A stretch of 64,000 nucleotides of DNA from Nitrospirota bacterium (GCA_963790205.1 CAWBNQ010000011.1:25591-89590); one strand, 5' to 3'; positions 1 to 27,648 are shown, counted from the stretch's first letter. A program made the numbers and translations. The notes: generated by a model from the sequence alone, not told the origin.

Positions 1-2
1 TC

Positions 3-587
3 AAGAGCTATAAGGAGATGATCAAGGGGCCCTGCAGCGAATGTGACCGGTTAAGCGCGTGTTACGGATGTCGCGGTGCGGCATACCAGATGACCGGCGA
101 CTATCTCGCCTCGGACCCCCTGTGCTGGAAAAATCTCGACCGGCGCGACGATATCATGTTCCTGCCCGTGGACGCGGCCCAGCTCGTTCCTCACAAGCCG
201 CCCATGCTCCTGATCGATCGTCTCCTCGAGGTCAAGGAGCGGGCATCCCTGTCAGAGATGACGGTGCGGGAGGACATGGTGTTCGTGGGAGAGGACGGGA
301 AGCTTGATGATGCCGCCTATGCCGAGGTCCTCTCCCAGGCCATCGCCGCACAGGAAGGGTTCCGAAAGCTCGGAAGCCGTGACCCTCAGCAAGAAGGTTT
401 TTTGCTCGGCATCAAGAACCTCGAGATCCTCGGCAGCGCCCGCATCGGCGATACCCTGCGCATATCAGTGTTTAAGGCCGCGAAGTTCGGAGATTTCGGC
501 ATTATCCGGGGAGAGGTCAGAAACGGTGACGCCCGGATCGCCCGCGGTGAGGTGAAGGTTTGGCAGAGCGACGGAAAGGCGAAATGA
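3..587 (+). CDS. 3' part of a radical SAM (SPASM) protein fused to a C-terminal FabA/FabZ-like hot-dog domain; 5' end lies outside the window
   Basis: Frame is open from the window edge. CSECDRLSACYGCRGAAY...DPLCW is a SPASM-type Cys pattern, followed by LVPHKPPMLLIDR (FabZ-like PHxxPxxxxD). Confidence 0.75.
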   Translation, partial: KSYKEMIKGPCSECDRLSACYGCRGAAYQMTGDYLASDPLCWKNLDRRDDIMFLPVDAAQLVPHKPPMLLIDRLLEVKERASLSEMTVREDMVFVGEDGKLDDAAYAEVLSQAIAAQEGFRKLGSRDPQQEGFLLGIKNLEILGSARIGDTLRISVFKAAKFGDFGIIRGEVRNGDARIARGEVKVWQSDGKAK

Positions 588-1273
588 TGATGAGGAAGAT
601 AAGAACGAGGGCACTCCTTTCTTCGGCCCTGGGCATCCTCCTGTTGTTGGCCGGAGCGGTTTTCGCGGAGGATATCAACAAGGGCGGAGCTCCGGGACCA
701 GCGGACCTGCCGGCATTCCTGAACAGCCTCGGTAAAAAGGTCTCGGCTTTCAAGACCCTCAAAACGGATTTTACCCAGGAAAAAGAGATGGCGATGTTCA
801 AGGAGAAGCTCGTGCTCACGGGCAGGATCTATCTCCAGAAACCCAACAAGGTCGCCTGGCATGTGGACAAGCCGCTCCGCTATTCCGTCCTGATCACCGA
901 CAAGTTTATACGTCAATGGGACGAGGACACGAACCAGGTGCAGGAAATATCGTTAACAAAGAACCCTCTCTTTCAGAACGTGATCAAGCAGCTGACGGTC
1001 TGGTTTTCCGGAGAGTACGGTTCGCTCCTCGACACCAATGATGTGCGGTTGGTGCAACAGAACCCTCTCGTGCTGGAGTTTTCGCCCCGCGCCAATAACG
1101 ACTCCCGGAAGGTCATTAAGACCATTACGATCACGTTCCGGGAAGATGAGACTTATTTGCAGCAGATACGGATCCGGGAACTGAGCGGCGATGTCACGAC
1201 GATTCATTTCACGAACACAATTTTGAACGCCCCTCTCGACAGCAGCAGCTTTGAGGTAAAAGGGCATGTTTGA
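584..1273 (+). CDS. LolA-like outer-membrane lipoprotein carrier protein
   Basis: Signal peptide, then FKTLKTDFTQEK...GRIYLQKPNKVAW (LolA-like). ATG at 584 overlaps the upstream stop (ATGA). Confidence 0.8.
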   Translation: MMMRKIRTRALLSSALGILLLLAGAVFAEDINKGGAPGPADLPAFLNSLGKKVSAFKTLKTDFTQEKEMAMFKEKLVLTGRIYLQKPNKVAWHVDKPLRYSVLITDKFIRQWDEDTNQVQEISLTKNPLFQNVIKQLTVWFSGEYGSLLDTNDVRLVQQNPLVLEFSPRANNDSRKVIKTITITFREDETYLQQIRIRELSGDVTTIHFTNTILNAPLDSSSFEVKGHV

Positions 1274-26072: not shown

Positions 26073-26170
26073 TCTCGCAAAGCTCGCCAAGTTCGCTAAG
26101 AGAAGCAAGACCTTTGGTTTAAAGCCAGGATTTAAAGATTTTCTTTGCGCCCTTTGCGTGCTCCGCGAGA
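26073..26170. repeat. 9-bp-periodic imperfect palindrome (REP-like)
   Basis: ctcgcaaag ctcgccaag ttcgctaag ... ctttgcgcc ctttgcgtg ctccgcgag, with TCTCGC/GCGAGA ends. Confidence 0.65.
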
Positions 26171-26214
26171 GACGCCTTTGTTTTTTGCTTCATCGGTCTT
26201 AAGGATATTAAATA

Positions 26215-27648
26215 ATGAAAATTCTTTTGATTAACCCCTTCGGCTCGAACTGGGTCGAGGGCATGGAAGACAAGACCGAGACCGCCATACGCATGGCCCC
26301 CATGGGCATCCTGTCGATCGCGGCATATCTGGAACAACAGGGCATTGACGTGGAGCTTTACGACTGCCGCGGGCCGGTCACCCTCGTCGGGACCGCCGAC
26401 GCTCTCGCCCGGGTCGCCGCTTTCAAGCCGGACATGGTGGGATTCACCGCGGTAACATCGAGCTTCTTGAACGCCTATCAACAGGCAGAGGACATAAAAA
26501 AGACAACGCCGCATATCAAGACCGTCGTGGGCGGCGTGCATGTGTCCGCCTTGCGCGGAAAGATCCTGGAACGATTCCCGGCTATCGATTACGTGGTGAC
26601 CGGCGAAGGCGAGAAGGCCATGGCCGAACTCGCCGCAGGCGCACCGCCGAAAGCCATTCAGGGCCTGGTGTACCGTGAAGGCGCTGAAATAAAGGACAAC
26701 GGCCTCAGGACCGAGCTCTGCGAACTCGACAGCCTTCCTTTTCCGGCTTACCACAAGCTTGAGGGTTTCCCCAGGCGCTTCGAAGCCGCCTTGTTCAACT
26801 ATCCCAAGGCGCCGACGGCAACGATCATTTCGAGCCGCGGCTGCCCATACCAGTGCTCCTACTGCGACCGGTCGGTGTACCGCCGGAGCTTCCGGTTCAA
26901 TTCAGCGGAATATCTGTACGAGCATATGGCATTCCTGAAAAAGAACTTCGGCATCAGACACGTGTTCTTCTACGACGACCTGTTCACGTTCAACCGCGAG
27001 CGGGTCGAAAAATTCTGCGGTCTTTTGCGCGACAAACCGCTGGGCATGACCTTTAATTGCGCCGTGCGCGTGGGGCATATCGATGACGCGCTGCTCAAGA
27101 TGCTTAAAACATCGGGCTGCTGGATGGTAAGCCTCGGCATCGAGTCGGGAGCACCGGAGATCCTGGCGCGCCACAAGACCAAAGTTGATTTCAACGAGAT
27201 GAAGACCACGGTCCGGCGCATCCAGAGGGCGGGCATCAGGGCCAAGGGCCTGTTCATGATGGGTCTTCCGGGCGAGACCGAAAAGACCATAAAAATGACA
27301 ACGGACTTCATCAACGGCCTGGAGCTTGACGATATGAACATGACCAAGTTCACGCCGTTCCCGGGGTCGCCTATCTATCAGACTATCCAAGAGGAAGGCG
27401 CGTTCACGGAAAAGTGGGAGCTGATGAACTGTCTCAATTTCGTTTACGTGCCCCGGGGGATCGAATCGAAAGAACGGCTTGACGACCTCTATAAGCAGTT
27501 TCTCAAACAGTTTTACACCGGCAGAAACTGGATCAGGAAGTTCGGCCCGCTCATGTTCAAATCTCCGCACAGCACACTGCGGATGATCAAGGGCATGCCG
27601 ACCTTCCTGAAGATCAGGAAGGATTTTGAACCGAAGGGGAACGGTTAA
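26215..27648 (+). CDS. B12-binding radical SAM protein
   Basis: MAPMGILSIAA...MVGFTAVT...VVGGVHVS B12 domain and SRGCPYQCSYC. Confidence 0.88.
   Translation: MKILLINPFGSNWVEGMEDKTETAIRMAPMGILSIAAYLEQQGIDVELYDCRGPVTLVGTADALARVAAFKPDMVGFTAVTSSFLNAYQQAEDIKKTTPHIKTVVGGVHVSALRGKILERFPAIDYVVTGEGEKAMAELAAGAPPKAIQGLVYREGAEIKDNGLRTELCELDSLPFPAYHKLEGFPRRFEAALFNYPKAPTATIISSRGCPYQCSYCDRSVYRRSFRFNSAEYLYEHMAFLKKNFGIRHVFFYDDLFTFNRERVEKFCGLLRDKPLGMTFNCAVRVGHIDDALLKMLKTSGCWMVSLGIESGAPEILARHKTKVDFNEMKTTVRRIQRAGIRAKGLFMMGLPGETEKTIKMTTDFINGLELDDMNMTKFTPFPGSPIYQTIQEEGAFTEKWELMNCLNFVYVPRGIESKERLDDLYKQFLKQFYTGRNWIRKFGPLMFKSPHSTLRMIKGMPTFLKIRKDFEPKGNG

Follow-up and report, generated by a model that had tools for sequence, protein, structure and literature searches.

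A radical SAM-rich gene cluster of a Nitrospirota bacterium, homologous to aryl polyene clusters and belonging to a widespread orphan family

Introduction

Gene clusters combining type II fatty acid synthase (FAS-II), radical S-adenosylmethionine (SAM) and phytoene dehydrogenase genes were described in Kuenenia stuttgartiensis and Desulfotalea psychrophila, with no ladderanes detected in Desulfotalea (Rattray 2009; PMC2649909). Ladderane synthesis is still unsolved in later papers, whose focus is a small anammox-specific Cluster I (kuste3603-3608). The literature limits ladderanes to anammox Planctomycetota, and metagenome surveys list 'ladderane' biosynthetic gene clusters in many non-anammox phyla, without a product. 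In a 2026 review, ladderanes and jawsamycin are the only ketoacyl lipids with proposed radical SAM tailoring, proposed and not solved in both cases (PMC13459092). Here we analyse a cluster with seven radical SAM genes that extends into a 64,000-nucleotide stretch of DNA (C11:25591-89590, 'the window') of an uncultured Nitrospirota bacterium (GCA_963790205.1, contig CAWBNQ010000011.1, here C11; genome of 4.34 Mb in 14 contigs), and compare it with these loci, with the Escherichia coli aryl polyene (Ape) cluster and with flexirubin clusters.

The cluster is one of a widespread orphan family whose members are called 'ladderane' (an antiSMASH class) or 'aryl polyene' by genome-mining tools. As in the preliminary description of the window, it could not be matched to a characterised product: our literature search found neither such a product nor a paper characterising this family. 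We consider it probable that the locus is a single 31-gene member of that family specifying a pathway to a radical SAM-tailored, unsaturated lipid exported to the outer membrane.

Results

A co-directional, operon-like cluster

Genes were called from open reading frame (ORF) listings and from Pfam and NCBIfam scans of the window and the upstream contig. U1 to U7 denote genes from the upstream side, U7 crossing the window start, and W numbers denote genes within the window; positions are those of the window unless a contig is named. C11:18533-53238 is one co-directional, translationally coupled, operon-like biosynthetic cluster of 31 genes and ~35 kb. The preliminary description had confined it to positions 1-27648. 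Its onset lies 7 kb upstream of the window, at C11:18533, where a strand switch (near C11:18300-18533) forms the left border, and this adds seven same-strand genes, among them the complete U7. Every cluster gene lies on the same strand, ~10 junctions are ATGA-type overlaps (many of 4 nt), and wider intergenic gaps (150-240 nt) precede W13, W20, W23 and W25. The downstream end is marked by the following feature, beyond which lie pyrR, pyrB and pyrC:

27845..27880, + strand: terminator-like hairpin with a 10-bp stem and then a T run, closing the cluster before pyrR

No internal terminator of comparable quality was found within the cluster in the terminator scan. Among the matches listed, the nearest relatives of the cluster proteins come from Nitrospirota and Thermodesulfovibrionia metagenome-assembled genomes (MAGs), at 75-90% identity.

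A whole-genome search for a second copy of the cluster returned none, only a small ketosynthase (KS) set on contig C1 and housekeeping FAS genes. The C1 set (C1:634687-638356, minus strand, outside the window) consists of KS, Cys-less KS-like, FabZ-like hot-dog and short-chain dehydrogenase/reductase (SDR) genes and does not duplicate the main cluster; 12 kb from this set is a B12-like radical SAM gene (C1:621435-622967).

A chassis homologous to aryl polyene clusters

Cluster proteins were compared directly by BLAST with the 18 Ape proteins (apeA-R) of E. coli CFT073 (NC_004431.1, 1143727-1158748). Reciprocal best hits, or best hits, were obtained to 11 of these 18 (ApeR, Q, O, P, I, K, J, E, F, D and M). 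The genes of the putative chassis are given below, each entry ending, where there is one, with its CFT073 match and identity.

Upstream of the window, same strand: U1, ApeQ/FlxB-like SDR ketoreductase (FabG-type), from the upstream contig scan; ApeQ, 42%, reciprocal best hit
Upstream of the window, same strand: U2, CrtD-like flavoenzyme, from the upstream contig scan
Upstream of the window, same strand: U3, ApeR-like KS, Cys-His-His intact; ApeR, 42%, E 1e-102, reciprocal best hit
Upstream of the window, same strand: U4, third acyl carrier protein (ACP), ApeF-like, DSL motif; ApeF, 37%
Upstream of the window, same strand: U5, PlsC-type acyltransferase, ApeD-like, from the upstream contig scan; ApeD, 25%
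Upstream of the window, same strand: U6, FlxY/PaaK-like ligase, NCBIfam FlxY near cut-off
584..1273, + strand: LolA-like periplasmic carrier (ApeL role); Pfam LolA 3.7e-21, signal peptide
1266..3656, + strand: W02, MMPL/RND-type exporter, ApeM-like; Pfam MMPL, HpnN-like by NCBIfam; ApeM, 22%, E 7e-9
3653..4327, + strand: DUF3261 lipoprotein (ApeN role); Pfam DUF3261, lipobox LAALAAGC
4314..4703, + strand: W04, ApeI-like hot-dog dehydratase subunit, GHFP...PG motif; ApeI, 24%, reciprocal best hit
4705..5190, + strand: W05, 4HBT/YbgC-type thioesterase, ApeK-like; Pfam 4HBT_2; ApeK, 30%, E 4e-18
5187..6302, + strand: W06, KS, Cys-His-His triad intact
6313..6987, + strand: W07, truncated Cys-less KS-like partner of 224 aa, weak ketoacyl-synt match
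9611..10810, + strand: W10, family 2 glycosyltransferase (GT2) fused to DUF2062; Pfam, PpgS/AglJ/ArnC-like by NCBIfam; N-terminal half of ApeJ, 33%
10782..11690, + strand: W11, LpxL-family acyltransferase; Pfam Lip_A_acyltrans; C-terminal half of ApeJ, 27% over 301 aa
11725..12003, + strand: W12, ACP, ApeE-like; Pfam PP-binding, DSL motif; ApeE, 38%
14749..15927, + strand: W15, KS, ApeO-like, Cys-His-His intact; ApeO, 34% over 396 aa, reciprocal best hit
15924..16991, + strand: W16, chain-length-factor-like dead KS; KS N-terminal domain only, no Cys or His

Every gene class named in the preliminary description was recovered in its place by Pfam and NCBIfam, including, within the window, two KS with the Cys-His-His triad (W06 and W15), two Cys-less partners (W07 and W16) and two ACPs (W12 and W20); the FabG that it predicted for the upstream flank turned out to be U1. 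The active-site check places U3 with W06 and W15, and all three cluster ACPs (W12, W20 and U4) carry the DSL motif. W06 has no one-to-one E. coli Ape partner, adjoins W07 in most related loci and has 9s5h_B as its best solved relative; W16 matches 9s5h_C and the actinorhodin chain-length factor (CLF) weakly. We take 9s5h to be the anammox amxFabF pair, a PDB code that the text of the paper does not itself tie to it. For W04 the Pfam ApeI-like match (7e-4, 20.3 bits) is under the 28.5-bit cut-off. LolA and the DUF3261 lipoprotein correspond to the Ape cluster at Pfam level only. No enoyl reductase family was recognised among the cluster proteins in the Pfam and NCBIfam scans. An 82-aa ORF at 16858-17106, considered as an ACP, was rejected, with no PP-binding match and no Ser motif, and is probably spurious.

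These matches show the chassis to be an Ape-homologous type II polyketide/fatty acid synthase with ApeR-, ApeO- and CLF-like KS, three ACPs, an ApeQ-like ketoreductase and ApeI- and ApeP-like dehydratases. They likewise show an anchoring and export set of Ape type, namely GT2, LpxL-like and PlsC-like acyltransferases, thioesterase, LolA, MMPL and the DUF3261 lipoprotein, and so substantiate the aryl polyene-type chassis claimed earlier. KS/CLF logic, at least two ACPs, ketoreductase and dehydratase without enoyl reductase, and LolA/MMPL export are common to this locus, the CFT073 cluster and its Xenorhabdus doucetiae equivalent. The products of Ape clusters are polyene carboxylates with conjugated double bonds and an aryl cap. 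BLAST against the CFT073 cluster gave no counterpart of ApeH, ApeB, ApeC, ApeA or ApeG; instead, the cluster has two ligases unrelated to ApeH, the FlxY-like U6 and the FadD-like W24. The chassis is therefore homologous to aryl polyene clusters and lacks the enzymes that define their aryl loading and methylation chemistry. Beyond the CFT073 complement, the Nitrospirota cluster has seven radical SAM genes, the W06/W07 pair, the CrtD-like flavoenzyme, the FlxY-like ligase, a family 1 glycosyltransferase (GT1), a deacetylase and a condensation-fold enzyme. The CFT073 cluster has no annotated radical SAM gene and gave no BLAST match to any radical SAM domain of the cluster. ApeP is here fused to a radical SAM-SPASM domain and ApeJ is split into two genes: E. 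coli ApeJ (L164, 31213-32889) matches W10 over its N-terminal 227 aa and W11 over its C-terminal 301 aa, so that one fused protein in E. coli corresponds to two separate genes in the Nitrospirota cluster.

Seven radical SAM genes

Of the seven radical SAM genes in the preliminary description, six had a visible CxxxCxxC and one was noticed through its SPASM end alone. All seven have the motif, which for the last, U7, reads CNFRCVYC and lies upstream of the window. Of the 43 Radical_SAM matches in the 4.34-Mb genome, seven fall within 28.5 kb, where chance would place 0.28.

C11:24693-26177, + strand (3' end at window 1..587): U7, radical SAM-SPASM fused to an ApeP-like hot-dog dehydratase, 494 aa; Pfam Radical_SAM and SPASM; C-terminus matches ApeP, 27%, reciprocal best hit
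6989..8257, + strand: W08, radical SAM with a marginal B12-like N-terminal domain; Pfam at cut-off, motif CRFNCFPC
8254..9624, + strand: W09, B12-binding radical SAM, TIGR04072 member; 623 bits vs 360 cut-off
12245..13615, + strand: W13, HemN-like (class C) radical SAM, accessory; Pfam Radical_SAM and HemN_C
18307..20076, + strand: W19, alpha/beta-hydrolase fused to radical SAM-SPASM; Pfam, GHSTG and CNLRCTYC motifs
23200..24636, + strand: W23, B12-binding radical SAM, HpnR-like; Pfam, NCBIfam HpnR 227 vs 650 bits
26215..27648, + strand: W25, B12-binding radical SAM, HpnJ-like; Pfam, NCBIfam HpnJ 186 vs 578 bits

The C-terminal 154 aa of U7, the ApeP counterpart, match the FabA/FabZ dehydratase 6qsr_B (E 2.4e-6). 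Its radical SAM-SPASM and ApeP-type parts are fused in Nitrospirota, Omnitrophota and Lentisphaerae, and the Desulfobulbales match covers the radical SAM-SPASM part only. Two domains that are joined in certain lineages and split in others form a Rosetta-stone pattern, which speaks for joint action of the radical enzyme and the dehydratase on intermediates bound to ACP.

No protein of the family is as conserved as W08, whose median identity in distant loci is 65%; the other genes found in more than five of these loci reach 27-48%. The mean column identity of the W08 alignment is 74%. Its Pfam B12 score is 32.2 against a 32.1-bit cut-off, and the best match to its predicted structure (predicted local distance difference test score, pLDDT, 86) is AprD4 (template modelling score 0.76), ahead of MgmA and TsrM. 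The N-terminal domain of AprD4 is not known to bind cobalamin. W08 may perform non-methylating radical chemistry.

Classification with hidden Markov models, as the preliminary description had advised, assigns W09 to TIGR04072, the NCBIfam 'lipid biosynthesis B12-binding/radical SAM protein' (model name rSAM_ladder_B12), and finds W13 (ChuW/HutW-like, 183 bits vs a cut-off of 400), W23 and W25 under their cut-offs. The nearest solved relative of W09, TsrM (E 6e-34), aligns with it across both domains; the family-invariant Arg78 of W09 aligns with TsrM Arg69, and W09 has Val at the position of TsrM Glu273. With the Arg kept and Val in place of the Glu, W09 probably binds cobalamin as TsrM does and initiates radicals normally. 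By analogy with TsrM and BzaD, W09 is most likely a C-methylase, and, from their nearest relatives, methylation is our best guess for W23 and W25 too. The likeness to characterised enzymes consists of the alignment of W09 with TsrM, the HpnR- and HpnJ-like matches of W23 and W25 and the AprD4 fold of W08; compared with HpnR, HpnJ and other characterised cobalamin-type radical SAM enzymes, the cluster proteins score far under equivalog cut-offs. Their substrates are presumably ACP- or lipid-bound chains. Of the four B12-binding enzymes claimed earlier, W09, W23 and W25 stand and W08 is marginal.

W13 is rare, being found in 3 of 160 related loci, and is 66-76% identical where present. The lowest-GC 2-kb bins of the cluster hold W13 (0.54) and W25 (0.53), the rest lying at 0.56-0.62; for W13, low GC together with its standing as the rarest gene among relatives is consistent with later insertion. 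The W19 family comprises more than 120 clusters, at 46-88% identity.

Co-conservation across the family

Two independent anchored scans, with one genome per species, were made around W19 (80 loci) and W09, and the ORFs of 160 loci were each assigned to their best match in the Nitrospirota cluster. A W09 relative is encoded in at least 590 species genomes. Beside W09 in the 34 long W09-anchored loci (≥18 kb) we found KS in 33, ACP in 31 and W08 in 27. The recurring gene order is U2-U7, LolA-MMPL-DUF3261, dehydratase-thioesterase-KS-dead KS-W08-W09(-W25), GT2-LpxL-ACP (W10-W12) and KS-CLF (W15-W16), with W25 adjoining W09 in many relatives. It is seen in Nitrospirota, Desulfobacterota, Geobacterales, Omnitrophota, Lentisphaerae, Planctomycetota, Verrucomicrobiota, Calditrichaceae, Spirochaetota and Acidobacteriota. 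One Omnitrophota locus (L097) is almost fully syntenic with the cluster, and Victivallis vadensis DSM 14823 (L158) and Holophaga foetida DSM 6591 (L063) are cultured carriers of the same order; these two, like Desulfotalea and Geobacter, have simpler versions of the cluster. Given this shared order and the KS and ACP genes beside W09, the radical SAM genes are co-conserved with KS and ACP genes; the preliminary description had held that their failing to be so would count against it.

Relatives have a modal number of three radical SAM genes within ±10 kb and a maximum of five, against seven in the Nitrospirota copy, in line with the earlier claim of an excess over typical clusters. Within the host phylum the cluster is an accessory trait: of 201 genomes sampled there, 47 have the W09-type marker above its cut-off, as do roughly half of those in the host's own family.

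Relation to ladderane-type and flexirubin clusters

The locus shares with the type of Rattray (2009) a phytoene dehydrogenase-like flavoenzyme, FabF paralogues including dead ones, an ACP, a phenylacetyl-CoA-ligase-like enzyme, radical SAM enzymes, a glycosyltransferase and a membrane protein. It differs in having more radical SAM genes (seven), W18-W19 and W20-W25, and in that its host is not an anammox bacterium. A locus of a Desulfotalea sp. (L151) is syntenic with the cluster and its gene set recurs in other Desulfobulbales loci, which ties the cluster to the Kuenenia/Desulfotalea synteny of Rattray (2009). The connection with Kuenenia is drawn from the NCBIfam model name, that paper and the Desulfotalea synteny; together with the TIGR04072 membership of W09, the latter upholds the connection drawn earlier to FAS-II/B12-radical SAM ladderane candidates.

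Scores against models of the flexirubin (flx) cluster of Bacteroidota come near their cut-offs and are all under them: 292 vs 340 for U1/FlxB, 481 vs 520 for U6/FlxY and 111 vs 125 for LolA/LolA2_flexi. No DarA/DarB-type dialkylresorcinol enzyme and no tyrosine ammonia-lyase were matched among the cluster proteins in Pfam and NCBIfam. With all Flx scores under cut-off and the Dar and tyrosine ammonia-lyase genes absent, membership of the flexirubin clusters was rejected.

Accessory modules and other features

The remaining genes of the cluster include the following:

13617..14663, + strand: W14, NodB-type polysaccharide deacetylase; Pfam Polysacc_deac_1
17079..18305, + strand: W18, GT1 (MGT/EryCIII-type) glycosyltransferase; Pfam and NCBIfam
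20238..20486, + strand: W20, ACP; Pfam PP-binding 1.6e-12, DSL motif
20499..21821, + strand: W21, free-standing condensation-domain-fold acyltransferase, by predicted fold
21818..23026, + strand: W22, PF12831 FAD-dependent oxidoreductase; Pfam 9.8e-80
24633..26060, + strand: W24, FadD/MenE-type acyl-AMP ligase; Pfam AMP-binding 2.7e-56, NCBIfam

Sequence searches of Pfam, NCBIfam and PDB gave no match for W21. Its AlphaFold2 model (pLDDT 87) has as top Foldseek matches AzeD, nonribosomal peptide synthetase (NRPS) condensation (C) and epimerization (E) domains and PapA5 (E ~1e-21), and in its family H141 and G148 are invariant and D145 nearly so; the condensation fold and this H...D..G motif support the 'HxxxD acyltransferase' of the preliminary description. 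W23 and the W20-W24 cassette are confined, among the scanned loci, to Nitrospirota, Geobacterales, Omnitrophota and some Lentisphaerae, and W14 relatives occur mainly in Nitrospirota and Geobacterales loci. W18 adjoins W19 in 41 of 43 long W19-anchored loci, yet the pair accompanies W09 in only 1 of the 34 long W09-anchored loci; it occurs in beta- and gammaproteobacterial Ape-type loci without B12 radical SAM genes, which makes W18-W19 an accessory of Ape-type clusters in general. Aerobic or facultative carriers of a W18-W19-type pair are seen among Rhodocyclaceae, Thiobacillus and Gammaproteobacteria MAGs (L041, L043, L044, L049, L050, L052 and L065).

Elsewhere in the window, a CRISPR array at 53493-57013 repeats the 37-nt unit GTAGCGCCCCTCAGCGATGAGGGGCGAGGATTGAAAC ~45-50 times, about every 70 nt, and lies downstream of large + strand ORFs (45600-52958) labelled as cas genes in the preliminary description only. 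A tandem array of period 21 with four copies, containing GACGAGG-like heptamers, occupies 58775-58857 directly after an ORF ending at 58776, and further members of the heptamer family in the window were reported there. Outside the window, five Radical_SAM-domain genes lie within 12 kb at C5:137026-148846.

Discussion

In the single pathway that we consider probable, the FlxY/PaaK-like ligase U6 would load an acid starter, possibly aromatic, on an ACP. The ApeR-like KS and the two KS/dead-KS pairs would extend it, with the ketoreductase and the ApeI/ApeP-type dehydratases acting without enoyl reduction to leave an unsaturated chain, probably a polyene; for this step the gene content is observed and the chemistry is our proposal. 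While bound to ACP the chain would be tailored by core enzymes of the family, namely the radical SAM-SPASM enzyme U7, W08 with its AprD4-like fold, the cobalamin enzyme W09 and the CrtD-like flavoenzyme, and also by W25. In a second arm, W24, W20, the HpnR-like W23 and the flavoenzyme W22 might generate a modified acyl group, which W21 would pass on to a hydroxyl or an amine; the deacetylase W14 could supply the latter by freeing a sugar amine. Thioesterase, PlsC- and LpxL-like acyltransferases, GT2 and W14 would build the anchor, W18 and W19 may decorate the lipid further, and MMPL, LolA and the DUF3261 lipoprotein would carry it to the outer membrane. The preliminary description thus holds for the architecture, and the glycolipid that it pictured, its chain bearing rings or several C-methyl groups, is a putative product.

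Several observations weigh against this scheme. No homologue of ApeH, which loads 4-hydroxybenzoate in true aryl polyene clusters, or of the methyltransferase ApeB was found in the cluster at E ≤ 1e-3, and no enzyme making an aryl starter was seen there, so that an aromatic head group is unproven. No family member has a known product, which makes every chemical step inferential, and W08 is by its sequence at most a candidate cobalamin binder. W13, W14, W18-W19 and W20-W25 are variably present among relatives and could serve separate ends. Lastly, consensus scanning for promoters and terminators returned a number of sites no higher than in shuffled sequence, the hairpin at 27845 being the sole standout of the terminator scan, by stem length.

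The absence of ApeH and ApeB would also suit an aliphatic fatty acyl chain, mid-chain methylated or cyclised (ladderane-like, cyclopropane or other carbocycles), that ends in an unusual membrane fatty acid with no aryl polyene involved. Such a product would agree with the naming of the W09 family after ladderane candidate clusters, with the presence of the HemN-like class C enzyme W13, whose class includes cyclopropanases, and with the review in which ladderanes and jawsamycin are the sole ketoacyl lipids with proposed radical SAM tailoring (PMC13459092). It would agree, too, with the heterodimeric KS 9s5h, presumably the anammox amxFabF pair, as nearest solved relative of W06 and W15. We nevertheless think an aliphatic product unlikely: the host belongs to Nitrospirota, the family occurs in hundreds of non-anammox species, the cluster has no recognised enoyl reductase, and U3 is nearer to ApeR (42%) than to the host genome's own FabF (37%). 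Moreover, TsrM and BzaD, the relatives of W09, act on aromatic rings and are not known to form alkyl rings. The same point is made by Desulfotalea, a carrier of this cluster type in which ladderanes were not detected (Rattray 2009).

The wider gaps before W13, W20, W23 and W25, and the position of the best promoter-like site of the scan directly before W20, raise the question of whether the locus combines, as a mosaic, two or three neighbouring pathways that differ in function and product: an Ape-like core, the W20-W25 cassette (ACP, C-like enzyme, B12-radical SAM and ligase) and the W18-W19 pair. These cassettes do occur independently, W18-W19 in Ape-type loci devoid of B12 radical SAM genes and almost never in long W09 loci, and W20-W24 in some lineages only. 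We find a mosaic improbable, however, in view of the single strand throughout and the lack of a comparable internal terminator; where present, moreover, the cassettes sit inside or beside this cluster type and not elsewhere, and W21 needs an acceptor, for which the cluster supplies plausible candidates. It seems more improbable still that the locus remodels lipid A or lipopolysaccharide (LPS), with the LpxL-like enzyme, GT2 and deacetylase attaching an unusual acyl group as a secondary acyl or aminosugar modification and no free pigment lipid being formed. An LpxL-family acyltransferase, an ArnC/PpgS-like GT2 and a NodB-type deacetylase are indeed present, in a W10/W14-type gene set that we take to resemble ArnC/ArnD logic, and export to the outer membrane by LolA and MMPL would serve LPS as well. 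But the same GT2 and LpxL-like pair resides within E. coli ApeJ, whose cluster makes aryl polyene lipids and not LPS, and the deacetylase is absent from most relatives.

The probable reading therefore remains that of one 31-gene cluster for a radical SAM-tailored, unsaturated and exported lipid. Going further, we put forward as a speculation, itself doubtful, that the conserved unit W06-W07-W08-W09 and the U7 fusion act on an unsaturated chain tethered to ACP, by radical chemistry that forms or rearranges C-C bonds. Such chemistry, whether a ring closure, a cross-link or iterative sp2/sp3 methylation, would lead to an undescribed outer-membrane lipid class of hundreds of anaerobes, and its enzymes would be non-anammox cousins of those sought for ladderane synthesis.

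The cluster is an unusually radical SAM-rich instance of a family first noticed in 2009 and already catalogued as orphan, and the Nitrospirota copy owes its value mostly to holding the fullest set of that family's optional modules. The identity of the product, if found, would define a lipid class of very many anaerobes, given a marker present in at least 590 species genomes, and would provide the first biochemistry of radical SAM tailoring of ACP-bound ketoacyl chains.

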